This document shows positions 4,437 through 54,167 of a stretch of 64,000 bases of DNA, piece after piece. The notes below the pieces were generated by a model. It did no database searches, was not told the origin of the DNA, and worked only from the letters and a program-made list of their open reading frames with translations. Numbering within the stretch: the first letter of the stretch is position 1; each line of letters opens with the position of its first letter. The position numbers were made by a program, and so were the translations under genes. The stretch is from an uncultured Gemmatimonadota bacterium (lineage in GTDB: Bacteria; JAAXHH01): the NCBI GenBank assembly GCA_951812955.1, contig OX638340.1:1024001-1088000 (forward strand), given 5' to 3'.

Positions 4437-4449
4437 AGAAGGAACCCAC

Positions 4450-21278: not shown

Positions 21279-22427
21279 ATGCTTGAACCGCCGGAAACGG
21301 AGCAGAACATGAAGATAACCCGCATTGAAACCATTCCTGTCGAAGTGCCACTCAAGCAGGGCATGACCACGAAAACCGCTCACGGCGAACATATCGTCTC
21401 CCCTTACGTCATACTCAGGGTGCATACGGACGAGGGGCTGACCGGGTTGGGCGAAGCCACGGTCGCGCCGCGCTGGAGCGGAGAAACGTCCGCGTCCTGT
21501 ACAGCTGCGATCCGGGATCTGGTGGATCCCGCGCTGAAGGGGGAGGATCCGGCTGACGTGAACCGGCTTTGCGGAGTCATGGACGAGGTCGTCAAGCTGA
21601 ACCCCTTCACCAAGGCGGGCGTGGAGATGGCCCTTTGGGACCTGGCGGGCAAGCATGCGGGGAAGCCTCTCTATCAATTGCTGGGCGGAAAGGTCCGGCA
21701 AGAGATTCCAATGAAGATGGTGGTCGGCGCCTTTGACGTGCCGACTTCGGTTGCCCTGGCGGAGAAATTCCTGCAGTGGGGTGTGCAGTGTCTCAAGGTC
21801 AAAGTCGGGCTGGATCCCGGGGAGGATCTCGAACGCGTCCGCGCGGTCCGCGCGCTGGCCGGCCCCGACATCCGTATGAGCATCGACGCGAATTGCGGGT
21901 GGCCGCCGGCCGTTGCGCGACGCATGTTGCATCTCCTCGAGCCATTGGACATCCTGTTCGCAGAGCAGCCCATGGCACCGCAGTTCGACGATGAAGCGGC
22001 CCTGATCAGAACGGGCACGACCATCCCCATCATGGCCGACGAGAGCGTCTTCACCCCGCACGACGCCATGCAGACCGCACTGCGCCGATCGGCGGACATC
22101 ATCAGCGTATATCCGGGCAAGAACGGAGGGATCGGACAGACGCTGGGCATCTCGCACGTGGCCAGCGCGGCGGGACTGCGCTGTCACATGGGCAGCAATC
22201 TCGAGTTGGGGATCGCCACGGCGGCCATGCTCCACGTGGCGGCCAGCGTGGAACCCATCGACAGTGAGACCTATCCCGGCGACCTGCTCGGTCCGCTGTA
22301 CCACGAAGGCGATATGATCGAGACGCCGCTGGAACTCGGCCCCGTCCATGCGAGCGTACCCGAAGGACCCGGTCTCGGAGTCACCCTGGATGAAGCACAG
22401 ATCGAACGCTGGAAAGACGCGTCATGA
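21279..22427 (+). CDS. mandelate racemase/muconate lactonizing enzyme (enolase superfamily) protein
   Basis: 382 aa; MKITRIETIPV..., KVKVG, metal ligands D/E/D pattern (SIDANCGW, FAEQP, MADES). Confidence 0.8.
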   Translation: MLEPPETEQNMKITRIETIPVEVPLKQGMTTKTAHGEHIVSPYVILRVHTDEGLTGLGEATVAPRWSGETSASCTAAIRDLVDPALKGEDPADVNRLCGVMDEVVKLNPFTKAGVEMALWDLAGKHAGKPLYQLLGGKVRQEIPMKMVVGAFDVPTSVALAEKFLQWGVQCLKVKVGLDPGEDLERVRAVRALAGPDIRMSIDANCGWPPAVARRMLHLLEPLDILFAEQPMAPQFDDEAALIRTGTTIPIMADESVFTPHDAMQTALRRSADIISVYPGKNGGIGQTLGISHVASAAGLRCHMGSNLELGIATAAMLHVAASVEPIDSETYPGDLLGPLYHEGDMIETPLELGPVHASVPEGPGLGVTLDEAQIERWKDAS

Positions 22428-22441
22428 CCGGCTGTTCGAAC

Positions 22442-22513
22442 GGAATCCCACCCATGACCGGATCCGCATGCATGACCGGAATCCCACCTATGACCGGATC
22501 CACACGCATGACC
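22442..22513 (+). repeat. 4 x 18-bp tandem repeat (GGAATCCCACCCATGACC / GGATCCGCATGCATGACC / GGAATCCCACCTATGACC / GGATCCACACGCATGACC) between enolase-family gene and Gfo/Idh/MocA gene
   Basis: read directly; CATGACC core recurs 5 times from the stop codon of the upstream gene. Confidence 0.85.
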
Positions 22514-22589
22514 GTTACGCGCGGCACGATACACAGTTACGAGCATAGCGCCAACCTAGAAGCAGTACCAAACTACAGAAAGGACAGCC

Positions 22590-23648
22590 ATGGCTGACGA
22601 ACGGACCTACAAGGCTTGCGTGGTGGGCCTGAGCGGCATCGGGGCGGGGCAGCCCCCGGTCGACGGCGACCACGGAATGGGCCAAGAAATGCCTAACCGG
22701 CACGTACCGGCCTATGCCCTCCTGCCGTTTACGGAGGTGGTCGGTGTATGTGACCTGAAAGAAGACCTCCTGCAGGAAACCATGGATGATTGGTCGGGTA
22801 CCTTCCCGGGATTGCGGGGATTCGCGGACTACAGGGAGATGCTTGAAGCCTGCAAACCGGATATACTGAGCGTAGTAACATCGGACCACCGCCACGCGGA
22901 CATCGTCGTGGACGGAGTCGCGGCGGGCGTTCGGGGCATCTATTGCGAGAAACCGATTGCGACCTCACTTGCGGATGCCGACCGCATGATCGCCGCGGTG
23001 GAAAGCCGGAACGTGCCCATGAACATCAACCACACCCGCCGCTGGGGAGCGGTATACCGGGAAGTCAGGAAGCTGCTCGACGAAGGCGCGATCGGCGAGC
23101 TGAAACGCATCACGCTGAATTTCGGCGGCCCCCGGGCCATTCTTTTCCGCAACGGCACCCACATGATCGACATGGCCTGCTACCTCGCGGGATCGGAACC
23201 CGCGTGGGTTTTCGCCGAACTCGACGAAGGCTACGAGGACTACTGGCCCTACCAGGGCGATGGCGGAAGGAACGCGGACCTGGAGCCGGGCTGCTCCGGT
23301 TTCATCCATTTCAAGAACGGCGTGCGTGCATTTTACAACGGTTCCAAGGGAATGGAATGCCGTGGAGGTTACCAGCTGGACGGTACCGACGGATGGATGT
23401 TCGTTCACGAGGACTATTACGAGCTCGACACGGGTAAAGGTATCCAGACTGTCGCTCCCAAGGGTCCGACCCATTACTACTCCGTCGCGGCTATCCGGGA
23501 CCTCGTCCACGTCATGGAACACGGAGGTGAGACCATTTCACCTCCCCGCGCCGCCCGGAATACCCTGGAGATCATCCTGGGGTTTCTCGCATCACAGAAG
23601 CACGGCAACGTACGCATAGATTTCCCGCTGGACGAGAACACCGTATAG
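22590..23648 (+). CDS. Gfo/Idh/MocA family oxidoreductase
   Basis: 352 aa; N-terminal Rossmann CVVGLSGIGAG, EKP motif GIYCEKP. Confidence 0.8.
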   Translation: MADERTYKACVVGLSGIGAGQPPVDGDHGMGQEMPNRHVPAYALLPFTEVVGVCDLKEDLLQETMDDWSGTFPGLRGFADYREMLEACKPDILSVVTSDHRHADIVVDGVAAGVRGIYCEKPIATSLADADRMIAAVESRNVPMNINHTRRWGAVYREVRKLLDEGAIGELKRITLNFGGPRAILFRNGTHMIDMACYLAGSEPAWVFAELDEGYEDYWPYQGDGGRNADLEPGCSGFIHFKNGVRAFYNGSKGMECRGGYQLDGTDGWMFVHEDYYELDTGKGIQTVAPKGPTHYYSVAAIRDLVHVMEHGGETISPPRAARNTLEIILGFLASQKHGNVRIDFPLDENTV

Positions 23649-27465: not shown

Positions 27466-28845
27466 ATGGTTAATGGAACCATACCAAAACGTATAGCCAT
27501 TATCGGCGGTGGGATATCCGGGCTGGGCGCAGCGTGGGCGTTGAATCAACATCCAGACCGGTTCGATTTCCGTATTTACGAAGCCCGGGAGCAGGTGGGC
27601 GGAAACGCAATCACCGCCGACATGCCGCAGGATGACGGCGGTTCCATTCCCTTCGACATTTCCGTCACCGCACTGATCCCATCGGTCTATCACCACATCC
27701 TGTTGTTGATGCGGAAGTTCGGCATCGAACTGCTCGATACCCGGTTCAACTACAGCGTGAAATACCATGGGCAGGTATACGCCCACGATTTCGACTCCGC
27801 CATCAGAAGGCAGCTGCAACCGGAGATTGTCCGGTTTCAACGGCTCCTGAAGCGTCTTCACCGGCTCGGCTGGCTGACCCATTCCCGGTCGAGGCTCGTC
27901 AACGCGCTCAATCCCTTAAATTACGTCAGCATGGGGACCGTGCTCAACCTGGGCGGTTTTTCAGGGGACTTCAGGTTCAAGATCCTGAAGCCCATGTTCG
28001 TCAATTTCCTGATGGCGACGAACGTGTTCGATATGCCCGCGTCGCTTTTTGCGCGGTACCTGGAGTTCTTCGATATCGAATCTGCGACGCCCATGCAGAC
28101 GTGGGACCAGGGCACGCGTCGTATCTACGAGCACCTTTCAGCCGGTTTCCGGGACAGGATATACCTCGGCCGGCCCGTACGAAAAGTGTACCGACGGCCG
28201 AACTGTGTCGTGATCGAGGATCCGGACGGAGTAGAGGAGACGTTCGACGAGGTGATCTTCGCCTGCAACGCGAACCAGACGCTGATGCTGCTCGACCGGC
28301 CCACGTTTCTGGAGCGGTACATTCTGTCGTCGATCCGTTATGAAAGCGAACTCCACAACCACACGGTCGTGCATTCGGACGCCTCCGTCCTGCCGGAGAA
28401 CGAAGTGAAACCGCTGGAGACGCGGAGCAATCATATTGAACAGTACGGGGCCAGGCCGGACAACTATGAAATAACCTACATCATGCACAACCAGCAGCCA
28501 TGGGCCAACCGGTCCGACAAACCCTGCCTGGTGACCTATAACCCGGTCACGCCCATCGACGAACGGAAGATCGTCAAGAAGTGGTGGTTCCAGCACATCG
28601 TGCATGATGTGCGCCATGTCGCCTGGCTCATCCATCTGTTCCGTTTCATCCAGGGCAGACGGCGGACCTGGCACTGCGGTGCCCATACCCTGATGAACAG
28701 CCAGGAAACCTGCTTTGTAACGGGACTCGCCGCGGCCTCGCAGATCGGCGCTGAATATCCCTTCAAAGACCCCCTGGCCAGGCGCATGTTCAATTATTAC
28801 GGAAGAATTCTGCACGGCTGGCGTTTCCGGAAGGCGAGAGGTTGA
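27466..28845 (+). CDS. NAD(P)/FAD-dependent oxidoreductase (amine-oxidase-like; resembles the FAD proteins encoded next to cyclopropane-fatty-acid synthase genes)
   Basis: 459 aa; dinucleotide-binding RIAIIGGGISGLGAAW...YEAREQVGGN. Confidence 0.65.
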   Translation: MVNGTIPKRIAIIGGGISGLGAAWALNQHPDRFDFRIYEAREQVGGNAITADMPQDDGGSIPFDISVTALIPSVYHHILLLMRKFGIELLDTRFNYSVKYHGQVYAHDFDSAIRRQLQPEIVRFQRLLKRLHRLGWLTHSRSRLVNALNPLNYVSMGTVLNLGGFSGDFRFKILKPMFVNFLMATNVFDMPASLFARYLEFFDIESATPMQTWDQGTRRIYEHLSAGFRDRIYLGRPVRKVYRRPNCVVIEDPDGVEETFDEVIFACNANQTLMLLDRPTFLERYILSSIRYESELHNHTVVHSDASVLPENEVKPLETRSNHIEQYGARPDNYEITYIMHNQQPWANRSDKPCLVTYNPVTPIDERKIVKKWWFQHIVHDVRHVAWLIHLFRFIQGRRRTWHCGAHTLMNSQETCFVTGLAAASQIGAEYPFKDPLARRMFNYYGRILHGWRFRKARG

Positions 28846-29090
28846 AAACCGCACCGGGTGACAGGGCTTCTACTGTCCAGTCAACATGCACCGAACGACG
28901 GAAATCCCGCGCGTATCTGCGCCGCCGCATTCCCCGCTACACCTGTTCGGGCCAAATCCTGCTTGTCGCGTTAATGCCTTGTAGTTATCATACTTACAGT
29001 GTGGAACACTATAGCGTTTCTTGACCCCTGCGGCCCTTCGATACCCGGACGAATTCACCGGCGCCGAGGAGGATCACGGAAGGACTGGAT

Positions 29091-30167
29091 TTGCATACCT
29101 CCGAAACGATCGCAACCCCCATGGCCGACGCAGATACCGTACACCGTACCGGGCACGCTCCGGGTGGCCTACCCCCCTTCCCGGAAGGCTGGTACCTGGT
29201 AACCACGCGCGAAACCCTGTTGCGGGAAAAACTGATCGAGAAGATGTGGATGGGGGAGAACATCGTCGCATGGTGTGACGAGGAAGGCCGTATCTGCGTG
29301 GCCGACGCGGTTTGTCCGCACCTGGGTTCCGACCTGGGACCGCAGGTCGGCGGCAAGATTCACGGTGGCCGCCTGGTCTGTCCGTTCCACGGGTTCGAGT
29401 TCGATGCGACGGGTCAATGCGTCGCGACGCCCAACGCCCCGGCGCCGAAAGCCGCGAAACTGACCGTGTATGAAACCCGTGAGATCTCCGGCCTGGTCTT
29501 CGCGTGGTACGGAATCGACGGCCGTCCCGCGCACTGGCACCTGCCGGACGATCCTCCGACCGGTAACGAGTGGGGCGAACTGGGATTCAGAACCCTGCGT
29601 TTTCGCAGCCATCCACAGGAAACGGCGGAGAACTCCGTGGATATCGGACACCTGCGCTACGTACACGGCTATGACAATGTGGACCCGGTCGGCCCGGTGA
29701 CGGTGGACGGAGCCTACCTGAGGAGCTGTTTCAACTTCAAGCGCGTCCGCAGCATTATGGGCTTGAAGGACCTCACCTATGAAGTATCGGCCGTCGCCCA
29801 TATCCACGGTCTGGGATACTCCTATGTCGAAGTCCACGAAAAAACGATCGATATGCACTTGAGACTGTGGGTACTGCCCACGCCGATCGATGGCAGCCTG
29901 ATCGATCTCGTACTGGCGGGCCAATTGCAGGGAATCCGCAGACCCCGGCGTTTCATCTCGGGCCTGGGGTTCCTCCCCATGGCGTTGCGCAACCGCTTGA
30001 TGAAGCAAATCATGCTTTCACAGCAAAAACGGGACGTACTGCAGGACGTGGTGATCTGGGAACGAAAGCAGTTTCGCACGCCGCCCCGGCTGTGCAAGGC
30101 CGATGGGCCCATTGGCCTTTACCGGCGCTATTGCCTGCAGTTCTATCCTGAACAACCGAAAGCCTGA
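29091..30167 (+). CDS. Rieske [2Fe-2S] non-heme-iron oxygenase (KshA/Neverland/PaO-like)
   Basis: Rieske CPHLGSDL...CPFHGFEF and mononuclear iron motif ENSVDIGHLRYVH (Ex3Dx2Hx4H); alternative start MADAD at 29121. Confidence 0.8.
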   Translation: MHTSETIATPMADADTVHRTGHAPGGLPPFPEGWYLVTTRETLLREKLIEKMWMGENIVAWCDEEGRICVADAVCPHLGSDLGPQVGGKIHGGRLVCPFHGFEFDATGQCVATPNAPAPKAAKLTVYETREISGLVFAWYGIDGRPAHWHLPDDPPTGNEWGELGFRTLRFRSHPQETAENSVDIGHLRYVHGYDNVDPVGPVTVDGAYLRSCFNFKRVRSIMGLKDLTYEVSAVAHIHGLGYSYVEVHEKTIDMHLRLWVLPTPIDGSLIDLVLAGQLQGIRRPRRFISGLGFLPMALRNRLMKQIMLSQQKRDVLQDVVIWERKQFRTPPRLCKADGPIGLYRRYCLQFYPEQPKA

Positions 30168-30255: not shown

Positions 30256-31050
30256 CTATCCGCCGTCCTCCAGCTCAGCCAGAGTCTCCAGCACCCCCTG
30301 CTGGATGAACTCCTCGTAGGCGTCCCGTGTCGGTAGTTCGGCCGCCTTCGACAGCATTTTCGTGGCCCGCGCCCGGCCGTCCTCGCGATCAAGATATGGA
30401 AGCCTGAGCGCATATTCAAACAGCACGACCTTCGAGTCCGGAGCTAGCTCCAGAGCCCGCTCGTAATGGATGACGGCGTTTTTCCGATTCCCCTTGTACA
30501 AGAACCGTGCAACGCGCCCGGCACGTGCGATGTCGGCGTGCCAGCCCCCTAAGGCCATATGCGCCTCTGCGAAGTCGGGGGAGATGGTGAGCGCGGTCTC
30601 GAGCAAATCGCGTGCCCTGCCCGCCAGACCTCGGCGAAATGCAGTTAGTTTACCGATACTCTGTGCATATCGGCCAACAGCGTGCGCGGATTGGAAATAT
30701 GCTTCGGAATTGGTCGAATCGATGCGCACTGCTTCTTCCCCGTACTCTATCGCGCGTTCCAAAATACCGTTCCGGTCCTCCTCAGTCGCCACATGGTGGC
30801 CGTACACCGCGAGCGATTGCGCCGCAAGGGCGTAGCCTTCGGATGTACCGACGGCTGACGCGAGATCCGCCGCCTCGAGAAAACGGCCTTCCTCGAAATC
30901 GGTCCTTGCTTCATCGATCGACTGCGCGTTCGCGCCAGCCGGGTCGGCCAGGCTGGCCGCAATAATCACGAATCCCGCAACTGCCACGAAACGGACAACT
31001 GCCGCGAATCCCGCAACGACTGCGAAACGGTAAAACTGGGTAAGGGTCAT
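30256..31050 (-). CDS. membrane-anchored tetratricopeptide-like repeat protein
   Basis: 264 aa; N-terminal hydrophobic segment then Ala-rich helical repeats. Confidence 0.5.
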   Translation of the reverse strand: MTLTQFYRFAVVAGFAAVVRFVAVAGFVIIAASLADPAGANAQSIDEARTDFEEGRFLEAADLASAVGTSEGYALAAQSLAVYGHHVATEEDRNGILERAIEYGEEAVRIDSTNSEAYFQSAHAVGRYAQSIGKLTAFRRGLAGRARDLLETALTISPDFAEAHMALGGWHADIARAGRVARFLYKGNRKNAVIHYERALELAPDSKVVLFEYALRLPYLDREDGRARATKMLSKAAELPTRDAYEEFIQQGVLETLAELEDGG

Positions 31051-31208: not shown

Positions 31209-32252
31209 CTAAAGAGGTTTACGAGCCAGGAAACAGTACAGCGGCGTGAAGATACCCGACCTGCCGCCCTCGACATAAGCGTCAGCAGTTCGATCCAGGA
31301 GTCGGACCACTTCCGAATACCCCTTCGGAATCAGACTTAGCGCTTCGGCCATCTTCGATCCTGCGATCACGGCCTTGCGACCCCAAGGGAGCCTGTTCAG
31401 TGCGTTCCCCAAAGTCCCATGCCGACTCTCCATTGGCCGATACCAAGGCGTGGAGGGTTCATTCCGGACGTCTCGGTCCATCCCTTCGATGACGTGGAAT
31501 CCCGCCGCTTCAAGCCCGTGATTCACTTCCCTGAACGTCGCAATGTCGTTCAGCGCAATGCCGCGCATGAGGTCCTGCTCAATGGCCCGGTGCCGGTTGT
31601 CTTTCGGATCGAATTTCTCGGTCAGACACATTTCCTGACCCCAAAACAGGGCTCCTGGTTTGAGTACGCGGAAGATCTCCGCGAAAGCGCGTTCCTTGTC
31701 TGGCGCGTGGCACGTTGACTCGATGGCATAGGCTCGGTCAAACGTCTCGTCCTCAATGCCGCCCATATCCATGAAGCTACACGTCTCGTAATCGACCATG
31801 TGGCCGAGTCCCGCTTCAGCGTTCAACCGCTTTGCCTTATCCAATTGGAGTTCGTTGATGTTGATTCCGACAACCCGGACGCCGGCCTCCCGGACGACGC
31901 GACGCATCGGACCGCCGATTCCACAACCAACGTCGGCCACCGTCATACCCTGCTCCAACTCCAGCTTCGAGATCATCAACCGCTGATGCCGGATTATGGA
32001 TTCCTCCAGGCTTTCATCGGGCTTTAGTGGCGCGAAGTGGAGGGATTCGCTCCAACCCCACACCATTAACCCGCTGCAAAGATCATAGTACTCTTTCACT
32101 GTTTCTGTGTGGTCGTACTCATACGCGCCATCGGCCCCCGGGACCGCCCGGGCTGCCCGGGCGGTCCAGCCTTCAAGGCGCTGCGCGCGACTCTTGACGT
32201 CCGATCCCCGGCTCGCATCTTTCAGTTCTCTGGATAGTTTGCCCATCGCCAT
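31209..32252 (-). CDS. sterol 24-C-methyltransferase-like (SMT/ERG6 family) SAM-dependent methyltransferase
   Basis: 347 aa; SMT signature blocks MVWGWSESLHF (cf. YEYGWGSSFHF), VADVGCGIGGP, YAIESTCHAP (cf. YAIEATCHAP), C-terminal FTPLYCFLARKP (cf. FTPMMLFVARKP). Confidence 0.8.
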   Translation of the reverse strand: MAMGKLSRELKDASRGSDVKSRAQRLEGWTARAARAVPGADGAYEYDHTETVKEYYDLCSGLMVWGWSESLHFAPLKPDESLEESIIRHQRLMISKLELEQGMTVADVGCGIGGPMRRVVREAGVRVVGININELQLDKAKRLNAEAGLGHMVDYETCSFMDMGGIEDETFDRAYAIESTCHAPDKERAFAEIFRVLKPGALFWGQEMCLTEKFDPKDNRHRAIEQDLMRGIALNDIATFREVNHGLEAAGFHVIEGMDRDVRNEPSTPWYRPMESRHGTLGNALNRLPWGRKAVIAGSKMAEALSLIPKGYSEVVRLLDRTADAYVEGGRSGIFTPLYCFLARKPL

Positions 32253-32288: not shown

Positions 32289-34319
32289 TCAGACTTGCAG
32301 TTCGTGTCTTTGCTCGGAGATGACGAACTGCAGCTTCTTGGTCGGTTTCATAGACGGAAACGGATTGAACCGCAGCTTATAGTTTGCAGGCGACACATCG
32401 ATCTTGAAGTAGTGCGCCAGCATCAGCACGTTGACAGCCAATTGCAGTTCCATCCAACGGGTGCCGAGACACATGTGCGTGCCCAGCCCGTACGGAGCGT
32501 ACCCGGGGCTGCGATGCTCATTGCGCGACGGCAAGTAGCGGTCGATGTCGAAGGAGTGCGGGTCGGGGAAGATGTCACTCATGTAATGCGAGGCGGTCGG
32601 CGCGATGTGGATCCGTTCCCTCATGGGCAGTTCGTATCCCTCAAACACACACGTATTCATCACGTGTCGAACAGACATGGGAACGATCGGGTACATGCGC
32701 ATACACTCCATGAGGAAGCGGTGCGTGACGTCAATCGCGGATGGAGTGAAGGCCTCGATGTCCGGAACGCCGTTCCCGAATACGTCATCGGCTTCATTTC
32801 GGATTTTCTCGTAGAGTGCAGGCTGCGACGCCATGGCATAGACTACCAGACTGAACGTGTCACCAAGGTACACGCTGGCGATCAACGCCGCAGAAAAGGC
32901 AAACCGCAGGTTGGCCTCCGGGAGGAATTGCGGGTCGCTCGCGTGCAGGCTAAGGTAATCGTCCACCAGGTCCCGCGGTTTTCCGGCCCGTTGGGCGGGG
33001 GTGTGGCCCTCCTCGACTCTTTTCATCAGTGTATCAAGGGATTTCGCCCGGCGTTTCATGCCCGGGGTGTTCAGCGTGAACTCGGGCAGCATCCTGGCGA
33101 TATGCACGCTGAGCGCCCGTTCCTTGTACTGCATCAGATCGTCCATCAGGTCCTGCGTGTCGATGCCGATAAACAGGGGCGAGAGTTGGGCGTTTATCAT
33201 CTGCCGGCACATGGACGTAGCAGAATAGGAATCGCCGACATTCAAGCTTGCCATGTATTTCCAGGCATGATGGTAGAGCTTGTCCAGCTGCCCCGCAAGT
33301 CTCCCGCGTGAATACGCTGGAGACAAAGACTTGCGCAGGCGGAAATGGTCGGCGCCGTCCAGGGAAGGCAAGAGGCCGGAAGCGCCGTAGACTTTCTCGA
33401 AGTCTCTGAAATAGTCCTTGGCACTCAGGTACATGCGCCCGTGCTTATGCACCCAGCGGTTTGCCTCGGGTCCGACCAGGAAGACCATGGGCCGGGTGAA
33501 AGGAGGGCGGATCTCAAACACCGGACCGTAGTCCTGCGCAAGGTCCGCAAAGAGCGCGTGGAGGTTGCCGTCTCGAACATGCGGTTGCATCATCAGCTTG
33601 CGTAACGGTACCCTCGGAATCTTCTTTGTAAAACCGGGACGTCGAAGCGTCGGGCCGGCGAGTTTGTGGGAGACTGCTTCGGCGATGGACCGGCCGATCA
33701 CGTCCATCTTGCAGATCAACTCGATGCGTTGCTCCGTCTCGTCATCGAGTTGGAACATGAATCGAAACACATCGCACGTATTGACGAGGCAAATTACGAT
33801 AACGTCTCTCGGGTCGGGGATCTCGTTCATGAAGATCGCCCGGCTGATCCGCGTTCTGATGAACTGACTTGCAGTACTCGAATCGACATCGTTGTTCAAT
33901 TCCATCTTCCAGTCAGTACGGGCCAGCGTCCAGAACTCGCCATCGTGGTGTTCCAGGATCTTCATTTCTACCAGGCGATCCAGAACCGAATCTATAATGG
34001 TCTCCGCTCGGGGGGCCAGCCGTTCGATCCAGTACTGTGTATTGTGCTGATTTGGCTCATTTACGATTTCTTCCAGAATGAAATCGATGGTGGAATTGCC
34101 CGTTGGTGTCTGGTCGAGGACGAACAGAGACCCCGGGTCCGTGTCGATGCGAGATCTGATTGAAAGCTCCGCAAGTGCGGCACCGATTACGGCGCAGTTC
34201 AAATCCCAGCCAGGCACCTGGTGGAAGTAGCCAGTCTCCTCATTGAGGAGCATCAGGATGAGTTCCTGGGTCAAAGTAAGTGATTGGGGCTTCACGTCCT
34301 TTGCAGTATCAGCCATTAG
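32289..34319 (-). CDS. cytochrome P450 with N-terminal GPP34/GOLPH3-like domain
   Basis: Start MADTAKD (4-bp overlap with RND stop); N-terminal ~230 aa LTLTQELILMLLNEETG... resembles GPP34; C-terminal P450 with EXXR (ECMRMYP) and heme loop YGLGTHMCLGTRW. Confidence 0.75.
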   Translation of the reverse strand, partial: LMADTAKDVKPQSLTLTQELILMLLNEETGYFHQVPGWDLNCAVIGAALAELSIRSRIDTDPGSLFVLDQTPTGNSTIDFILEEIVNEPNQHNTQYWIERLAPRAETIIDSVLDRLVEMKILEHHDGEFWTLARTDWKMELNNDVDSSTASQFIRTRISRAIFMNEIPDPRDVIVICLVNTCDVFRFMFQLDDETEQRIELICKMDVIGRSIAEAVSHKLAGPTLRRPGFTKKIPRVPLRKLMMQPHVRDGNLHALFADLAQDYGPVFEIRPPFTRPMVFLVGPEANRWVHKHGRMYLSAKDYFRDFEKVYGASGLLPSLDGADHFRLRKSLSPAYSRGRLAGQLDKLYHHAWKYMASLNVGDSYSATSMCRQMINAQLSPLFIGIDTQDLMDDLMQYKERALSVHIARMLPEFTLNTPGMKRRAKSLDTLMKRVEEGHTPAQRAGKPRDLVDDYLSLHASDPQFLPEANLRFAFSAALIASVYLGDTFSLVVYAMASQPALYEKIRNEADDVFGNGVPDIEAFTPSAIDVTHRFLMECMRMYPIVPMSVRHVMNTCVFEGYELPMRERIHIAPTASHYMSDIFPDPHSFDIDRYLPSRNEHRSPGYAPYGLGTHMCLGTRWMELQLAVNVLMLAHYFKIDVSPANYKLRFNPFPSMKPTKKLQFVISEQRHELQV

Positions 34320-37300
34320 TGGCCTCCCTTCATCAGACGCAGATGAATGGTAGAAAGAGCGGGAACGACCATCATGAGTATGGCCGTGACGACGAGGATA
34401 CCGCAACCAAGCGATGCGGCAAAGGGAACCAGGAACTGAGCATGAATAGCGCGTTCCAGAATCAAGGGGGTGAAGCCGAGAAACGTAGTCAGAGAAGTAA
34501 GCATAATCGGACGAAAACGTCCCTTTGCGCCCTCTATGATCGCAGTTCGCGCCGGAGCGCCTTCCCTGAGTTTCTGATCGATGAAAACGATCATGACCAG
34601 TGAATCGTTCACAACCACGCCGCTCAGGCCGAATATACCCATGAAGGAGATTGCGCTCAGGGCTACTCCAAGGGCCCAGTGACCAAGGATCACTCCGATG
34701 AACCCGAACGGGATCACCGCCATGATGATGAACGGTTTGGTATAGGATCGTAAGGGGATGGCGAGCAGCACGAAGATCATGATCAGAGCGATCGCAAATC
34801 CGCGATACAGTGCATCCAGGGAATCGAGTTGTTGTTGTTGCTCACCTCCGAACGTGTAGGTCAGGTCCGGGTACACGGCGGTCAATTCCGCGAGGATTGA
34901 ATCCGCCAGGATGCTATTGGCCTGGTCACCGGAGATCACCGCGGCATCCACGTCCGCAGTGACCGTGACGACACGCTGACCATCCTTCCGCCGAATGGCC
35001 GGCGGCGACACGCCCGTGTTCAGCGCGGCCACACTGACGATCGGGACCTCGGCACCGGCCGGCGTACGGATCAGGTACCTTTCGATATCGGTGATGGAAC
35101 TTCGTTCATCGGCGGGCAGGCGCACGTAGACCCGAACCTCTTCACGGCCGCGCTGCACCCGGACGGCATCCGCACCGAAAAACGCGGCGCGCGTCTGTCC
35201 GGCCAACGCTTCCAGCGTGAGACCCAAAGTCCGCGCTTCCGGCCGGAGTTCAAGCTGTATTTCCGGGATACCCGGGGTGTGATCCGAACGGACATCGTAG
35301 ACGCCTGTCACTCCACGGAGACCATCGACCACCGAGTCCGCAATCCGGGCGAGTCGCACCGGATCCGGATGCGACAGCACGGCCTCGACCGGGTTGCCCA
35401 GGTCGAAGACCTCTCCGCTGAAGGTGACACCGCGCACGTAGGGCAGCACACCCACTTCCTCTCGCCATGCCTGCACAACCTCTCCGGTAGTGATCTGCCT
35501 TTGCTCCGCGCTCAGGAGTTTGAACTCGATGGTTGCAATGTTGGCCTGAGGATTAAGGGTGGGGGCTGGATTAAGCCCACCCTCGAGCCTCGAGCCCTGT
35601 CCGACGGTCACCATTACGCCGGTCAGCAGTGGTGGCGCATCCTCGGGGCGGCCGCGCGAAAGCCGATCGACGACCCGGTAACCTGCGGCCTCCAGTTCCT
35701 GTGCCACCTCGTATGTCCTTGGAGCGGTCGTCCCGTCGGGCATCTCCAGGATGACCGTCGCAAAATCCCCCTCCACGTCAGCAGCCAACGTGGTAGGTAC
35801 GATCCCCGCCGGTACCAGCGAGATACTAAGTACGAGTATTCCAACGGCCCCCCCCAGCGTGACCGCGGGCTGATCCGTCGCGAACCGTAACGCTCGGTCC
35901 AGGGGACCCTGCACGAACCGGTTCAGCGACTCGTTCACACGTCCCTGGATCCGCGCGAAGAACCGGTCGAAAGCACTTGTCGGCGTCCATTCCGGACCGT
36001 GCAAACGGGACAGGTGGTTGGGTAGTACCAGCAGTGATTCGATCAGGGAAACAAACAGTATGGCGATAAGGATGATCGGCAGTGCCCGCCATACGTCACC
36101 GACGCCTCCGGGTATGAACAGCAGCGGGACGAAAGCCACCACCGAAGTAAGGACCGCGAAGGTCAACGGCACTTTTATCCGTCGTACTCCGCGTATCGCA
36201 GCCACGACACCGGGCGTTCCCCGACTGCGTTCATATTGAATGTGCTCGGCTACGACGATGGCGTCATCGACGACAATCCCTATGGCGAGGACGAAAGAGA
36301 ACAGGCTGATGGTGTTAATAGCTACGTCGAGTACCATCATGACGGCCAATGTGCCTATACCCGAAACGGCGAGGCCGACGGCGACCCACAATGCAAGCCG
36401 GATTTCCAGAAACAGGCTGAGTGCGATCAACACCAGCAACAGACCCAGGATGCCATTCTTGACGAGAATATCGGCACGTTCCTCATAGGCTTGGGATTCG
36501 TCATTCCACATGGTGATGTGCACACCGTTCGGCAGAGCCGGGATCACCTCGTTTGCCATATGTTCCCGGACAGTCGTGGCGACGTCCATCACTTGTTCGC
36601 CGTTGGCTCGGTACACCTCGACGAATACAGCGGGATGGTTCTGATGCCGAACAATCAGGTCGGATTCCTGAAAACCATCGCGAACCCTGGCGATATCGCC
36701 AAGGCGCAAGGCAGTGCCGTCACTTCTGCTAAGCAGGATGATCTCTTCGAAATCCTGCTGGTCGTAGTTCTGGCCGAGGGTACGAACCCGCACCTGGGAT
36801 TCCCGGGTATCGATACTGCCGGCAGAAAGGTTCAGGGAACTGCGACGAATGGTATTGGCGACATCGGCGAGTGTCAGTCCAAGGGCTCTCAGCCGATGAA
36901 GCGGCACCTCGATGGAGATCTCGTATTTCCGAACACCACTGACCTCGACCTGGGACACGGACGGAAGCGCCGTGAGTCCATCCTCGATCTGATATGCCGT
37001 TTCCTTCAGCGAGCGTTCGGACACGTCGCCGTAGACGATGAACCGTATCATGCTCATACGGTTGTCCATCTCACGGAAACTGGGACGATCGGCACCGGCC
37101 GGGAAAGACTGGATGCGATTGACCGCGGACTCGATATCGTTGAGCGCCTGGACCATGTCCGTACCGAAATCCATTTGAATCCGCACGGATGCTATACCCG
37201 GGGCCGCTACAGACTTGACCGCCTTCACGTCATCCAACCCGCTGACCTGGTCCTCGATCTTGACGACGATCGACTCCTCGACCTCCTCCGGCGTGGCGCC

Positions 37301-37489
37301 GGGATAGGCCATCGACACTTCGATATGGTAGAAGGGAGTAGTGGGCCACGCTTCCCGATCGATGCCGGACAGCGAAATCAGCCCTGCGGCGACGATGGCC
37401 ATCATCAACAGATTGGCGGCCACGCTGTTGCCCGTCATGTAAGCGATCGGACCGGAAGGTTCGTTATGATTTCCGTTGTCCATACTCAT
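34316..37489 (-). CDS. RND-family efflux transporter permease (AcrB/HpnN-like, HAE)
   Basis: 1057 aa; 12-TM RND topology with two large periplasmic loops; ATGA overlap with upstream MFP gene. Confidence 0.85.
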   Translation of the reverse strand: MSMDNGNHNEPSGPIAYMTGNSVAANLLMMAIVAAGLISLSGIDREAWPTTPFYHIEVSMAYPGATPEEVEESIVVKIEDQVSGLDDVKAVKSVAAPGIASVRIQMDFGTDMVQALNDIESAVNRIQSFPAGADRPSFREMDNRMSMIRFIVYGDVSERSLKETAYQIEDGLTALPSVSQVEVSGVRKYEISIEVPLHRLRALGLTLADVANTIRRSSLNLSAGSIDTRESQVRVRTLGQNYDQQDFEEIILLSRSDGTALRLGDIARVRDGFQESDLIVRHQNHPAVFVEVYRANGEQVMDVATTVREHMANEVIPALPNGVHITMWNDESQAYEERADILVKNGILGLLLVLIALSLFLEIRLALWVAVGLAVSGIGTLAVMMVLDVAINTISLFSFVLAIGIVVDDAIVVAEHIQYERSRGTPGVVAAIRGVRRIKVPLTFAVLTSVVAFVPLLFIPGGVGDVWRALPIILIAILFVSLIESLLVLPNHLSRLHGPEWTPTSAFDRFFARIQGRVNESLNRFVQGPLDRALRFATDQPAVTLGGAVGILVLSISLVPAGIVPTTLAADVEGDFATVILEMPDGTTAPRTYEVAQELEAAGYRVVDRLSRGRPEDAPPLLTGVMVTVGQGSRLEGGLNPAPTLNPQANIATIEFKLLSAEQRQITTGEVVQAWREEVGVLPYVRGVTFSGEVFDLGNPVEAVLSHPDPVRLARIADSVVDGLRGVTGVYDVRSDHTPGIPEIQLELRPEARTLGLTLEALAGQTRAAFFGADAVRVQRGREEVRVYVRLPADERSSITDIERYLIRTPAGAEVPIVSVAALNTGVSPPAIRRKDGQRVVTVTADVDAAVISGDQANSILADSILAELTAVYPDLTYTFGGEQQQQLDSLDALYRGFAIALIMIFVLLAIPLRSYTKPFIIMAVIPFGFIGVILGHWALGVALSAISFMGIFGLSGVVVNDSLVMIVFIDQKLREGAPARTAIIEGAKGRFRPIMLTSLTTFLGFTPLILERAIHAQFLVPFAASLGCGILVVTAILMMVVPALSTIHLRLMKGGH

Positions 37490-38703
37490 GGGGTCTGGCC
37501 GACTTCCGTCTGGACGCGCATGCCTTCGGTGGTGAACCGGATCCCGCCGGTGACAACGGCCTGACCGCTTTCGAGGTCACCCGTCACATAGGCTACGTCG
37601 CCGGTTCGTTGCAGTACCTGTACCGGAACGATATGCACCACGCCGCCGTCCCGCACGATCCAGACCTCGTTGCCGGACTGCAGCGCCGCTCGCGGAACCA
37701 GGAAGTAATCATCCCGTTCAAGGCCGTCTATTTTCACTTCGACGTATTTGCCTACCAGCAGGGGAGGACTACTGCCGCCGATAGGAATCGTGCCGTCCGT
37801 GGGGCGTCCCGCTCGAAACGGATCCGGTACGCGCACAATGATGTCGATGGTACGCGTTTGCCGGTCAAGGGACGTCTCGCCGCGGTCCACATAACCTCTC
37901 CAGGCATAGGATCCTTCACCGAATCGGGCGACGACCTGCGCAGCGACTCTCCGGTTCCCGTCACCCGCCGAAAGCGACCACAACCCCGGAATCAGCGCTG
38001 CATCGGAATCGGACAGAGGCACCACGATTTCCACCGCATCTGAGGCGAAAACCCTCGCGACGGATTGACCGGCGGCGACGATCCGCCCCACGTCCACGGT
38101 TTCTTCCTGCACGTATCCGTCGAATGGCGCCGTAACTTCGGTTCTCCCCAGGGCGAGATTGGCGTCGGCAAGCCTGGCTTCGTCGCGATCCAGTGCGGCC
38201 TGGGCCGCTTTCAGTTGCGGTTCTCTAAGGGCAAGCGGGTTCGCGCCGTTTGGCGATGATACGTCCTCCTGACGGGAGGAATAAAGCGCGTGCTGCGCGC
38301 GGGCAATCGAAGCCCGTTCCTGCTCTTTGAGGAACGCCACCCGGCTGGCGGCGACGTTGGCCTCCGCTTCACGCACCCGGTGCCGGTAATCGATGTCTTC
38401 CAGCCGGAATAGCGTTTGGCCTGCGGTTATCCGTCCACCGCTCTGGAATCCCTGTTCAACCCAGACGACTTTGCCGCCGACCTGAGGAACGATATCTACT
38501 TCCGCGTCTGGCCGGACGGTACCGGATCCAAATACCGGTACGGGGCCAGACCCGGTGGCGACCGGGCCGGTCTGCACGAACGGAGTCTGGGGAGGCTGTT
38601 CCGTACGTGTCGGTTCGGGGGCCAGTGAAATCAACAGGGCGGCCAATGCCACGGAGACTCCGAGAACGCCTACTGTGACTAGAAGACTGGTAAGACGGGA
38701 CAT
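37486..38703 (-). CDS. RND efflux periplasmic adaptor (membrane fusion protein)
   Basis: 405 aa; N-terminal TM anchor, coiled-coil/lipoyl/beta-barrel MFP pattern. Confidence 0.8.
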   Translation of the reverse strand: MSRLTSLLVTVGVLGVSVALAALLISLAPEPTRTEQPPQTPFVQTGPVATGSGPVPVFGSGTVRPDAEVDIVPQVGGKVVWVEQGFQSGGRITAGQTLFRLEDIDYRHRVREAEANVAASRVAFLKEQERASIARAQHALYSSRQEDVSSPNGANPLALREPQLKAAQAALDRDEARLADANLALGRTEVTAPFDGYVQEETVDVGRIVAAGQSVARVFASDAVEIVVPLSDSDAALIPGLWSLSAGDGNRRVAAQVVARFGEGSYAWRGYVDRGETSLDRQTRTIDIIVRVPDPFRAGRPTDGTIPIGGSSPPLLVGKYVEVKIDGLERDDYFLVPRAALQSGNEVWIVRDGGVVHIVPVQVLQRTGDVAYVTGDLESGQAVVTGGIRFTTEGMRVQTEVGQTP

Positions 38704-38709
38704 GCGAAT

Positions 38710-40230
38710 TCACTCCGTTGGAAGGCGAGAGGAAGAGCGCCGACCTTGCTGATGCTGAAGGAGGCCCTCCCGGTCGGCTGCGGTCCAGGTACCGCCCAGC
38801 GCGCGATGGAGTGCCAGACGTGCGTAGCCCAGATCGCGCAATGCTGCCGAGTGTATCGATTGCGTGGCCAACCGGGACTGTTCAGCTGCCAGGAACGCTT
38901 CGTATTCCCCCACACCATACAGGTATTTTCGCTCCAGTAACGCGGATTGAGCCCGAGTTTCTTCGGTGAGGGAAACCAGCAGCGCGTGGCGCCTGCGGCT
39001 GGCTTCCAATGCCGTCAGGGCAATTTCAACCTCGTTAACCGCGGTTACCACGGCACGGCCGTATGCGGCCGCGGCCTCGTTCAACCTGGCCTCTGCCAGC
39101 GCGATGTTGCTTCGAATCCGGGAGCCCTGGAAAACGGGACCGAGCAGATTCGCAGTGAGGTTTCGGAACCATTGATCCGGATCGAACCATTCGCTTGAAT
39201 CCGTGCTCTGAAGTCCGATCGCGCCCTGCAGAGACAGCCTCGGAAGCAGGTCCGCCCGTCGCGCGCCCACCGAGAACCGTGCCGCCTCCACGCGCTGCAT
39301 GGCCGCAAGGACGTCGGGACGTTGGACCATGAGATCGGCAGGAATGCCGGCGGGAACGGGATCGAGTACGGGAGATGGAGCGGGCGCATCGGAGAGCAAG
39401 TGCGCCAGGTCGGCCCGGAAGCCACCCATGAGTATCCACAGCCGACCCTCGGCGTCCGCCCGCAGGGCTTCGATCCGCGGCAATTCCGCCTGGGCCTCAC
39501 GCAGACTTCGACGGGCGGCGTGCAGGCCGACCAGGTCGGCTAACCCGCTTTCATACCGGGACCCGGCCAGTGATTCCTGTTGTTCCAGGATCGCCACGAT
39601 TTCAAAGGCGAACCGCTGCTGCTGGCGCAGATTCACGATTTCCAGGTAGGTCCGTACGGTCTCCGCCAGCACGCCCAGGTTTGCACTCAGATAGTCCGCC
39701 TCCGTAGCCACCAACTCGGCAGCCGCGGCGCGCGTGTCGTTGCGGTTGCGGCCCCAGAAATCCAGCTCGTAGGCGAATTCAACGCTCAGGGCATAGGTCG
39801 TCAGTCCGAGCCTGTCCGGGATATCCACTCCGGCCGCGCCGAGTACGTCAGGATCCAGACCGACCTCTTCCAGTTGCGCTCCTATGCCGGCATTCGTCGG
39901 ACCGTCGGATTCGCTCACGTTCACCGTCGGCCGCAGCAACGGAAACACCGCCGACCCGGCTATGCCTTTCCGCATCCTGGCCTGATGAACTCTGGCGACC
40001 GCTCCGGCCAGGTCGAAATTAGAAGAAAGCACTTCTTCGATTACCCGGTCGAGGACCGGATCTTCGAATGACTTCCACCACTCCAGGGGTCGGTATACGC
40101 CGGAATCCTCGCTGGCAGTAAATGCGCCGGGTGTTTCCGGCACCGATTCGAGCACCGGTAGATTCCGGTTCGGAGCAAGGGAACATGCCGAGAGGAAAAG
40201 GAAAGCAAACAACGGTATTAATCGTCCCAT
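38710..40230 (-). CDS. outer-membrane efflux protein (TolC/NodT-family lipoprotein)
   Basis: 506 aa; lipobox LFLSACS; duplicated OEP repeats. Confidence 0.8.
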   Translation of the reverse strand: MGRLIPLFAFLFLSACSLAPNRNLPVLESVPETPGAFTASEDSGVYRPLEWWKSFEDPVLDRVIEEVLSSNFDLAGAVARVHQARMRKGIAGSAVFPLLRPTVNVSESDGPTNAGIGAQLEEVGLDPDVLGAAGVDIPDRLGLTTYALSVEFAYELDFWGRNRNDTRAAAAELVATEADYLSANLGVLAETVRTYLEIVNLRQQQRFAFEIVAILEQQESLAGSRYESGLADLVGLHAARRSLREAQAELPRIEALRADAEGRLWILMGGFRADLAHLLSDAPAPSPVLDPVPAGIPADLMVQRPDVLAAMQRVEAARFSVGARRADLLPRLSLQGAIGLQSTDSSEWFDPDQWFRNLTANLLGPVFQGSRIRSNIALAEARLNEAAAAYGRAVVTAVNEVEIALTALEASRRRHALLVSLTEETRAQSALLERKYLYGVGEYEAFLAAEQSRLATQSIHSAALRDLGYARLALHRALGGTWTAADREGLLQHQQGRRSSSRLPTE

Positions 40231-43121: not shown

Positions 43122-44240
43122 ATGGACAGACGATACAGGGCAGGGGTTATCGGGCGCACCGGCAAGGGTAATTACGGCCATGGCCTGGATACGGTCTACC
43201 TCGGCATGGAACACGTAGACATCATCGCCGTGGCCGACGACGATCCGGATGGCCTGCGGGACGCGGGCCGTCGGCTGGGCGTGCAGAACCTGTACACCGA
43301 CTACAGGGAGATGCTGCGAAACGAGTGGTTCGACATCGTCAGCATCTGTCCCCGATGGCTCGACCAACACGCCGCAATGACCCTGGCCGTCGCGGAAGCG
43401 GGCGCGAGCATCTTCCTCGAAAAGCCCATCGCCCGAACGCTGTCCGAAGCTGACGCCATGATAGAAGCCTGCGAGAAGGCGGGTGTGGTGATGGGCATCG
43501 CCCACCAGGGCCGCATGCACGCGGCCGCGTGGCGTGCCCGGCAATTACTCGCCGAAGGCGCAATCGGAGACATTCTCCACGTACGGATGAATGGCAAGGA
43601 GGACCATCGCGGTGGCGGGGAGGACCTCATGGTGCTGGGTACCCACCTTTTCGACATGCTCCGGTTTCTCCTGGGCAGAAACCCCGCCTGGGTGCAGGCG
43701 GCGGTAACCGTGGACGGCGGCCGTTCCGCGACCCTGGAGGACGCCGGGGAGGGTCCGGAAGAACTGGGACTGATCGCGGGAGACGCCATCCACGCGATGT
43801 ACGGTTTCGGGCACGGTGTGACGGCCACTTTCGAAACGCGCCGCAACCAATCGAGCCATCCTCAACGGTACGGCATGTGGGTTTTCGGGTCGGAGGGCAT
43901 CATGACCGTCCACGAGTCCTCCCAGCAGATCCGGATTTATGAATCCCCGGTCTGGCATCCGGATGAAGGCGCGGCCATTCGCGACGTCACCGCGGAAACT
44001 CTCGAACTCGCGCCTTCTGCGCAGCCCTCCATGGGCGCGCTCCAGGCGGCGGCCAATGTCGCCATCGTCCGCGACGTGTTCGAGGCGGTACGGGATGGAC
44101 GCAGGCCGGTAAACAGCGGTTATGACGGGCGCTGGGCACTGGAAATGATACACGGCGTCTACGCCGCCCACCTGACGGGAAGCCGAATCGCCCTGCCGCT
44201 GGAAAACCGGGACCACCCGCTGTTGCCGAACCTCATCTAG
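43122..44240 (+). CDS. Gfo/Idh/MocA family oxidoreductase
   Basis: 372 aa; Rossmann YRAGVIGRTGKGNYG, EKP. Confidence 0.8.
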   Translation: MDRRYRAGVIGRTGKGNYGHGLDTVYLGMEHVDIIAVADDDPDGLRDAGRRLGVQNLYTDYREMLRNEWFDIVSICPRWLDQHAAMTLAVAEAGASIFLEKPIARTLSEADAMIEACEKAGVVMGIAHQGRMHAAAWRARQLLAEGAIGDILHVRMNGKEDHRGGGEDLMVLGTHLFDMLRFLLGRNPAWVQAAVTVDGGRSATLEDAGEGPEELGLIAGDAIHAMYGFGHGVTATFETRRNQSSHPQRYGMWVFGSEGIMTVHESSQQIRIYESPVWHPDEGAAIRDVTAETLELAPSAQPSMGALQAAANVAIVRDVFEAVRDGRRPVNSGYDGRWALEMIHGVYAAHLTGSRIALPLENRDHPLLPNLI

Positions 44241-44264
44241 GCAGGCCTCCGTGCAGGATTCACC

Positions 44265-54103: not shown

Positions 54104-54167
54104 ATAGTTTTACGATAGTACTCAAACCCCAAAATGCAGTTGGCTTCCATATAGCACCGCATTCTAA

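Follow-up and report, generated by a model that had tools for sequence, protein, structure and literature searches.

A Rieske oxygenase gene and a flavoenzyme gene as likely parts of a sterol-tailoring and export module shared by sponge- and coral-dwelling bacteria

The window analyzed here is a 64,000-nucleotide stretch of contig OX638340.1 from an uncultured Gemmatimonadota bacterium. Two plus-strand genes near its middle are the subject of this work, and we consider it likely that both belong to a sterol-tailoring and export module passed horizontally among bacteria living in sponges and corals. The first (27466–28845) encodes a 459-amino acid (aa) flavin adenine dinucleotide (FAD) enzyme with an amine-oxidase fold, similar to LkcE, PAI and UfaD; the second (29091–30167) encodes a Rieske [2Fe-2S]/non-heme-iron oxygenase with the KshA fold, 358 aa long when read from a TTG codon. 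An in-frame ATG at position 29121 offers an alternative start that would yield 348 aa. The TTG start is plausible because the sequence GGAAGGA, a Shine-Dalgarno motif, lies about 5 nt on its 5′ side, no such motif precedes the ATG, and the closest homologue is likewise 358 aa long. Facing these genes is a tight minus-strand operon, convergent with the Rieske gene. It begins with an outer-membrane factor (OMF; 38710–40230; Pfam OEP, two matched stretches), followed by a membrane-fusion, or periplasmic adaptor, protein (MFP; 37486–38703; Pfam HlyD_3), whose gene overlaps by 4 bp that of an AcrB-type inner-membrane transporter from the RND (resistance-nodulation-division) superfamily (34316–37489; Pfam ACR_tran, 533 bits). 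Next come a fusion of a GPP34 (GOLPH3-like) domain with a cytochrome P450 (32289–34316; 675 aa; Pfam GPP34 and p450), a divergent enzyme of the sterol methyltransferase (SMT) family (31209–32252; Pfam Sterol_MT_C and S-adenosylmethionine (SAM)-methyltransferase domains), hereafter the module-type SMT, and finally a tetratricopeptide repeat (TPR) protein (30256–31050; Pfam TPR families). The adjacency of the two plus-strand genes to an SMT/P450/RND operon, noted in an earlier sequence-only reading of the region, is therefore borne out, with the TPR gene alone standing between the Rieske and SMT genes. G+C content is slightly lower over 28–38 kb of the window; scans for promoters and terminators near these two genes gave nothing better than chance.

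The Rieske protein matches the Pfam families Rieske (58 bits) and KshA_C (80.3 bits, cut-off 23.3), and no PaO domain was reported by the same scan. Counting residues from the ATG start, the cluster ligands lie in C65-P-H67 and C87-P-F-H90 (CxH...CxxH) and the iron motif reads E170-NSV-D174-IG-H177-LRYV-H182; the full CxH...CxxH and Ex3Dx2Hx4H motifs claimed by the sequence-only reading are present, as is the length of 358 aa from the TTG. D309, in a QDVVIW stretch, aligns with the region of KshA that holds the third iron ligand, a C-terminal Asp, and by alignment is the candidate that would complete with H177 and H182 the 2-His-1-carboxylate triad of the mononuclear iron. Across 97 homologues with identities down to 29%, C65, H67, C87, H90 and D174 are invariant, and E170, H177, H182 and D309 are kept in at least 90%.

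A sequence search of the PDB returned three KshA enzymes on top (E 1e-22 to 1e-19), then SxtT/GxtA, DdmC and NdmA, and a profile search extended the match to the C-terminal helix of KshA. An AlphaFold2 model of the protein, built on the 97-sequence alignment drawn from a library of 50% clusters, had a predicted local distance difference test score (pLDDT) of 93 and a predicted template-modelling score of 0.91; an earlier model made from 22 close homologues had a pLDDT of 54 and was unusable. When the model was compared with the PDB by Foldseek, KshA5, KshA1 and Mycobacterium tuberculosis KshA ranked first (TM-score 0.78–0.83; root-mean-square deviation 2.6–3.4 Å; about 340 columns at 22% identity), with SxtT/GxtA lower, at a TM-score of about 0.7. 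The family comprises 394 clusters at E ≤ 1e-30 in a representative library of 1.8 billion proteins. The clade seems uncharacterized, since 20 representatives looked up among the nearest 150 all bear generic names ("Rieske 2Fe-2S domain-containing protein"). The window protein thus appears to belong to a separate, uncharacterized clade of the KshA-like, alpha-only class.

Of the size-class relatives named by the sequence-only reading, KshA was upheld by the Pfam, PDB and fold comparisons and SdmA was not. On the NCBIfam SdmA model (NF052579) the window protein scored 32 bits, over residues 24–104 only, against a cut-off of 600, and the identification with SdmA was rejected. A genuine SdmA homologue whose gene adjoins the module in Binatia scored 408 bits on the same model over its full length; BLASTP aligned the two proteins over just 85 residues of the Rieske domain, at 24% identity. 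SdmA, the sterol C-4 methyl oxidase of Methylococcus, is like the window enzyme a Rieske-type oxygenase, and it works in bacterial sterol biosynthesis, but its catalytic domain is VanA_C instead of KshA_C. With KshA (PDB 2ZYL, 4QCK, 4QDC/4QDD/4QDF), whose substrate is a steroid, the window protein shares the alpha-only fold, the CxH...CxxH and ExxxDxxHxxxxH motifs, KshA_C and a C-terminal helix, QD(V)xIW...DGP...(R)RY/W..QFY, that bears the Asp ligand. The sequence match to KshA nevertheless covers mainly residues 15–182 and a short C-terminal stretch, and the window gene differs from KshA genes in its surroundings, which lack a KshB-type reductase and are biosynthetic and export-related, not catabolic. 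An assignment as KshA proper is not supported, given the 22% identity, the absence of catabolic genes nearby and the anabolic and export neighbors. A 645-aa Rieske protein (P0268) considered as a possible GPP34–Rieske fusion was discarded: it has no GPP34 similarity and an unrelated context.

The FAD protein is a member of the flavin amine-oxidase/phytoene-desaturase superfamily with the two-domain architecture of that group. Its Pfam matches are NAD_binding_8 and Amino_oxidase (54.7 bits for the latter, against a cut-off of 19.8), and its FAD dinucleotide motif, GGGISG, lies in the N-terminal GxGxxG stretch IAIIGGGISGLGAAW. In the PDB it aligns end to end with the flavin amine oxidase LkcE (E 6e-26, residues 8–437 on 12–427) and also matches PAI, the fatty-acid isomerase of Propionibacterium acnes (2b9w; E 2e-10). 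The two-domain flavin amine-oxidase fold is common to the window protein, PAI (2B9W), LkcE (6F7L) and UfaD, the FAD enzyme of cyclopropane fatty acid (CFA) operons; the substrates of UfaD, PAI and LkcE are hydrophobic chains, of lipid or polyketide nature, on which they act at allylic or alpha positions. The 120 best homologues, from Gemmatimonadota, Chloroflexota and Acidimicrobiia, are 79–97% identical.

A search of plasmids retrieved genes annotated as "FAD-dependent oxidoreductase" whose products are about 28% identical to the window protein over 86% of its length (E 1e-24 to 2e-29). The one plasmid neighborhood inspected (H8) is an operon made of a short-chain dehydrogenase/reductase (SDR), the FAD gene, DUF1365, CFA-synthase, DUF2878, a chalcone-isomerase-like gene and DUF3833. 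Operons of the SDR–FAD–DUF1365–CFA type include UfaD, the desaturase of the product of the lipid methylase UfaM (PMC7380195). The resemblance to oxidoreductases encoded with cfa, suggested by the sequence-only reading, is correct as distant homology. As judged from these alignments the homology to CFA-operon FAD genes appears real, yet too distant to infer the same reaction, and homology to UfaD itself is deduced from the type of operon. UfaD and the window FAD protein are each encoded with a SAM-dependent lipid C-methyltransferase, of CFA type in the one case and SMT type in the other; neither a DUF1365 (UfaO) nor a CFA-synthase gene lies beside the window FAD gene. An analogy to BfaA/BfaB (10-methylstearate) was dropped, BfaA being a MurB-like "FAD-linked oxidoreductase" from another family.

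The module-type SMT of the window scores 56.7 bits on Sterol_MT_C (cut-off 21.7) and has an intact SAM-binding Region II (DVGCGIGGP). Its Region I, LMVWGWSESLHF, deviates from the canonical FYE[FY]GWGxSFHF, and the deviation is kept in module-type SMTs across loci: the core is GWSESLHF in the window and GW[GNSDA][EQ]SLHF in module-type SMTs across phyla, versus GWGQSFHF, GWGRSFHF or GWGQSWHF in canonical SMTs encoded in the same loci. Up to three tandem canonical SMTs stand beside a module-type SMT (GW[GS]ESLHF) in Binatia and Nitrospirales loci (L023 16931–20364; L024/L091 16814–19098; L078 5972–7003 and 11032–12066). Canonical and module-type SMTs are only 40–45% identical and form clearly separate subfamilies.

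The reading frame of the GPP34-P450 fusion starts at ATG 34316, a codon that shares bases with the stop of the RND gene (TAATG) and follows a Shine-Dalgarno sequence, AAGGGAGG; with this start the protein has 675 aa, not the 705 aa of the mechanical open reading frame (ORF; 32289–34406). This arrangement implies that the RND pump and the fusion would be translationally coupled. The P450 domain carries the heme-ligand motif YGLGTHMCLG as well as ExxR and I-helix motifs, and the start of the fusion has no evident signal peptide. The domain was considered as a CYP51 paralogue and rejected as such, being 24% identical to true CYP51 over the C-terminal 178 residues.

Homologues of the Rieske protein at 62–96% identity were found in at least 575 places in GTDB species genomes. 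The best 80 of these loci were surveyed by tblastn with the window proteins. All 80 are in metagenome-assembled genomes (MAGs), and the sources readable from their names are all sponge or coral (Aplysina, Ircinia, Rhopaloeides, Coscinoderma, Porites lutea, Ca. Palauibacter). They are distributed among Gemmatimonadota, Latescibacterota, Binatia, several orders of Acidobacteriota, Nitrospirales, Rhodothermales, Opitutales, and Alpha- and Gammaproteobacteria. Partners were counted within 10 kb of the Rieske gene, in the 54 species-level loci whose flanks extend 8 kb or more each way. Of these 54, 49 contain GPP34-P450, with the RND pump in 41, the module-type SMT in 33 and the FAD gene in 27; the MFP (23), OMF (16), TPR (8) and hydantoinase (6) genes are less frequent. 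At least three of the four partners GPP34-P450, RND, SMT and FAD occur in 37 loci and none of the four in 4. The 54 loci display 34 distinct arrangements of gene order and orientation. Where the FAD gene is present it is the immediate neighbor of the Rieske gene, with a median gap of 154 bp. Clustering of all ORFs near the module, small ones included, brought out no further conserved family.

Individual loci illustrate the range. That of Gemmatimonadetes APA_bin_41 is 96% identical to the window and collinear with it, and an Acidobacteria locus with wholly different flanks has the Rieske gene together with the FAD, GPP34-P450, SMT and RND genes. Contigs of Chloroflexota and Acidimicrobiia retain Rieske, FAD and GPP34-P450, with or without the SMT; in their loci and in L088 the AcrB-type pump is swapped for an RND protein of about 800 aa of the MMPL/Patched/sterol-sensing type (L085 15810–18287; L086 12725–15211; L088 5328–7727). 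A Rieske homologue of 51% identity is still found beside GPP34-P450 and an MMPL gene; relatives at 41% and 34% identity occur in unrelated contexts. Linkage spans about ten phyla, across which the FAD and Rieske genes accompany SMT, P450 and RND genes; the absence of synteny in relatives that would have refuted the sequence-only reading is thus decisively contradicted. High cross-phylum identity, shuffled gene order, unrelated flanks and the lower G+C are consistent with horizontal spread in the host-associated community.

The TPR gene is a lineage-specific accessory found in 13 of the 80 loci (the L001 homologue is labelled RMD1-3); its product was considered as an analogue of BstC and rejected, since it gave generic TPR matches only in the PDB and has no detectable BstC similarity. 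Among the distant Rieske loci L094 (10001–15516), L095 (3537–6076) and L090 (8862–12155), the neighbor is an AcrB pump (48% identity) or a MatE exporter (41%), while a Pseudomonadales MAG (34% identity) carries three tandem Rieske paralogues, with a small stand-alone Rieske protein encoded about 2 kb downstream.

The survey bears on an entirely different explanation of the locus. The GPP34_L proteins of sponge symbionts (PMC11706023) have the same GPP34 plus P450 architecture and the same habitat restriction as the 675-aa window protein. They were read in that study as phagocytosis modulators, and the only neighbors reported are P450 genes near short GPP34 genes; the account makes no link to Rieske, FAD, SMT, RND or sterol genes. 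One could therefore imagine the fusion as a host-directed effector that binds phosphatidylinositol 4-phosphate and blocks phagosome maturation, with the Rieske gene unrelated and the FAD gene belonging to a hydantoinase operon. Such fusions have indeed been reported only in sponge symbionts, with phagocytosis evasion as the proposed function (PMC11706023), and in the window the FAD gene starts 75 bp past a hydantoinase B gene on the same strand. Hydantoinase genes, however, accompany the module in just 6 of the 80 loci, all of them closest relatives, and therefore lie outside it; elsewhere FAD adjoins Rieske in unrelated flanking contexts. The fusion itself shows no obvious signal peptide at its start, and its translation is coupled to that of the RND gene; a heme P450 needing cytoplasmic redox partners is unlikely to be a secreted effector, and the flanks of the fusion genes were not examined in PMC11706023. 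We give this explanation scarcely any chance of being right.

In six of the 80 loci the module adjoins genes of sterol biosynthesis. On a Binatia chromosome, L091 (the same as L024), Rieske, GPP34-P450 and FAD genes are followed directly by sdmB, sdmA, a canonical SMT, a module-type SMT and a second GPP34-P450. The sdmB product is an SDR of the 3-beta-hydroxysteroid dehydrogenase type (301 bits, full length, on the NCBIfam SdmB model), the sdmA product a Rieske/VanA_C protein (408 bits, again full length, on the SdmA model), and Region I of the canonical SMT reads FYEFGWGQSWHF. The module is likewise bordered by sdmA or sdmB homologues, or by both, in Binatia L021, L023 and L036, in Nitrospirales L078 and in Opitutales L068. 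True sdmA homologues are found within a few kb of it in Binatia, Nitrospirales and Opitutales. In L078 the order is CYP51, ERG4/ERG24, sdmA, sdmB and canonical SMT, then FAD, an outer-membrane protein gene, Rieske and module-type SMT, then GPP34-P450; the CYP51 matches that of Methylococcus at E 5e-105. The gene between FAD and Rieske (L078 9016–9930, plus strand) encodes an OMP_b-brl outer-membrane beta-barrel; peculiar to this lineage, it may serve the lipid product at the outer membrane.

These junctions tie in with published clusters from the same hosts and phyla, which also contain SMT homologues (PMC10070321; PMC9531527). In the cluster of "Nitrospira sp., coral reef", genes 2682229274–279 were assigned as SMT, sdmB, sdmA, ERG24, CYP51 and SMO/OSC, gene 2682229270 as a second SMT, 35.6% identical to ERG6, and genes 271–273 were left without assignment (PMC10070321). 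Judging by gene order, L078 probably corresponds to this cluster. In Nitrospirales the module forms a physical part of a sterol cluster of this kind. ERG24–CYP51–oxidosqualene cyclase (OSC) clusters have been reported in symbionts of Ircinia (Kelly et al. 2022, PMC9531527), and the classes with such clusters coincide with those that carry the module. Only OSC, CYP51, ERG24, sdmAB and SMT were assigned in these two studies (Brown et al. 2023, PMC10070321; PMC9531527); the words Rieske, P450, GPP34 and amine oxidase were not found in the text or supplements of PMC10070321. Together, the synteny and the six loci beside bona fide sterol genes support the proposal that the two genes act in the same lipid-tailoring pathway as the SMT-like gene.

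It could also be argued that the module serves sterol catabolism or scavenging, with the KshA-like oxygenase, a flavin dehydrogenase and a side-chain P450 beginning the breakdown of host sterols in the manner of KshA, KstD and CYP125 in actinobacteria. The hosts are sterol-rich, the best structural match of the Rieske protein is KshA, and the trio of P450, Rieske enzyme and flavoenzyme parallels the oxidations with which the textbook 9,10-seco pathway opens. What speaks for a very low probability is the company that the genes keep: the surroundings of the module show no conserved genes for KshB, Hsa, FadD/FadE, thiolase or Mce, the partners (SMT, sdmAB, CYP51, exporter) are anabolic or exporting, the flavoenzyme is of the amine-oxidase and not the KstD type, and identity to KshA is just 22%.

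The explanation that we favor, and regard as likely, is that the FAD and Rieske genes are part of a horizontally shared module whose core consists of the KshA-fold Rieske oxygenase, the GPP34-P450 fusion and an RND-superfamily transporter, with the FAD enzyme and the divergent SMT as usual companions. Very probably the substrate is a sterol, either made by the symbiont through an OSC pathway or obtained from the host. Supplied with electrons by some generic reductase or ferredoxin whose gene lies elsewhere, the Rieske enzyme would react O2 at its 2-His-1-Asp iron and thereby introduce a hydroxyl group or a double bond into the nucleus or side chain of the sterol. Steroid hydroxylation is known from KshA, and C-7 desaturation from Neverland-type Rieske enzymes. 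The flavoenzyme is predicted to abstract a hydride at an allylic carbon, causing desaturation or isomerization of a C=C bond. Flavoenzymes of the UfaD, PAI and CrtI types carry out desaturation or isomerization on lipid chains. A plausible target would be the side chain alkylated by the SMT, in which, for example, a conjugated diene might be formed. As a precedent, a non-canonical flavoprotein of the geranylgeranyl reductase (GGR) type serves as sterol C-24 reductase in bacteria, in place of a eukaryotic sterol enzyme (PMC12004948). The GPP34 domain would anchor the P450 at the membrane, where the latter would perform a further oxidation. Finally, the RND system would move the product to the outer membrane or outside, through AcrB/MFP/OMF in diderms and MMPL/Patched-type proteins in Chloroflexota and Acidimicrobiia. 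An RND-superfamily transporter encoded with sterol-modifying genes is also found in the BstABC/HpnN systems: BstA is encoded with sdmAB in Methylococcus, and outward carriage has been proposed for BstA and shown for HpnN (PMC10942540). BstA and HpnN are MMPL-type, like the Chloroflexota and Acidimicrobiia variants, whereas the window pump is AcrB-type and tripartite.

Several observations weigh against this explanation. Family scans of the window proteins detected no OSC, CYP51, ERG24 or sdmAB in the 64 kb, and only the six loci described above, of 80, show a junction with sterol genes. Besides following hydantoinase B at 75 bp, the window FAD gene is separated from the Rieske gene by 245–275 bp, depending on the start chosen, and the two are probably not co-transcribed here; a test of whether FAD and SMT genes tend to occur together fell short of significance (20/7 versus 13/14, p = 0.09). 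The SdmB- or KshB-like partner reductase that the sequence-only reading had suggested looking for did not turn up: no KshB-like reductase was found in the window, and no reductase or ferredoxin is conserved within 10 kb in the 80 loci, small ORFs included. The best PDB matches of the P450 domain, to CYP51, CYP120 and plant or animal P450s, reach just E 1e-15, so that it has no close characterized sterol P450. Among the more distant Rieske relatives, those at 48% and 41% identity have an efflux pump as sole remaining neighbor. As for the SMT, the motif 84-GWGxxFHF-91 is reported to be invariant among SMTs that act on desmosterol or 24-methylenecholesterol (bioRxiv 10.64898/2025.12.19.695621); the module-type enzyme lacks F89, and the window copy also lacks G86. 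Because of this deviation its substrate may not be a standard Delta-24 sterol. Conceivably, and more speculatively, it may need a different acceptor, possibly the product of the neighboring enzymes.

Part of these findings would suit a module of detoxification, in which the P450, Rieske oxygenase, flavin oxidase and methyltransferase would alter a toxic metabolite of host or microbial origin that is not a sterol, for instance a terpenoid or alkaloid from the sponge, and the AcrB-type pump would expel it. The window has a full tripartite AcrB/MFP/OMF efflux system and no sterol-synthesis genes, the SMT departs from the motif of sterol-active SMTs, distant Rieske relatives adjoin AcrB or MatE exporters without the other module enzymes, and the module is restricted to hosts that are chemically rich habitats. 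We nonetheless hold detoxification to be quite improbable: the methyltransferase bears a Sterol_MT_C domain, the nearest fold to the Rieske protein is that of a steroid hydroxylase, KshA, loci in Chloroflexota and Acidimicrobiia use lipid transporters of the MMPL/Patched/sterol-sensing type, and the module is joined to CYP51–ERG24–sdmAB–SMT clusters in three phyla. A sterol-tailoring and export module therefore remains our preferred explanation.

Other parts of the window contain genes that are distinct from the module. Three plus-strand ORFs at 51147–56870 (702, 283 and 900 aa) are almost without family matches, apart from DUF4062 in the 900-aa ORF and weak PADLOC methyltransferase matches in the 702-aa ORF. 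G+C drops to 0.45 around this segment from about 0.60 elsewhere; it is probably a horizontally acquired island, possibly related to restriction or defense. A GFO/MocA oxidoreductase paired with an enolase-superfamily (MR_MLE) gene occurs twice on the plus strand, at 21279–23648 and 43122–47128. After the second GFO/MocA and MR_MLE pair comes a further FAD gene of the amine-oxidase type, contained in ORF 45131–47128 and unrelated to the module. Three genes of the PhyH (phytanoyl-CoA dioxygenase-like) family lie at 3570–5283 and, on the plus strand, 62370–63218, accompanied by many sugar/acid oxidoreductase and hydantoinase/caprolactamase-like genes. This gene content is in keeping with a symbiont that oxidizes a broad range of small molecules.

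The protein families, the sterol clusters of sponge symbionts and the GPP34-P450 architecture are already known. In the literature searched, however, Rieske, UfaD-like FAD, GPP34-P450, divergent SMT and RND genes have not been recognized as one conserved unit attached to sterol biosynthesis. Sterol synthesis by sponge symbionts bears on the debate over 24-isopropyl- and 26-methyl-steranes as "sponge biomarkers", and the assignment of bacterial enzymes has so far gone no further than C-4/C-14 demethylation and C-24 alkylation. The module offers four conserved candidate enzymes and a transporter, shared across about ten phyla and docking onto the sterol cluster, as clonable targets for the missing desaturation, isomerization, hydroxylation and transport steps. 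It also provides a testable alternative to the phagocytosis-evasion reading of GPP34-P450 fusions. The divergent SMT may explain why some SMT homologues from sponge metagenomes were inactive on standard substrates, although its presence among the inactive enzymes of Brown et al. can be deduced from gene numbering only.

A bolder version, which we think unlikely, holds that the divergent SMT, FAD enzyme, Rieske enzyme, P450 and pump act together as the missing bacterial machinery for non-canonical sponge sterols. The SMT would then alkylate a position or double bond left untouched by canonical SMTs, for instance once a side-chain double bond had been shifted or added by the flavoenzyme; the Rieske enzyme and the P450 would add unsaturation or hydroxyls to nucleus or side chain, and the pump would deliver the products to the host. 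If this were true, part of the chemistry behind "sponge-specific" sterol and sterane biomarkers would be made by symbionts, and the GPP34-P450 proteins would be sterol enzymes and not phagocytosis effectors.

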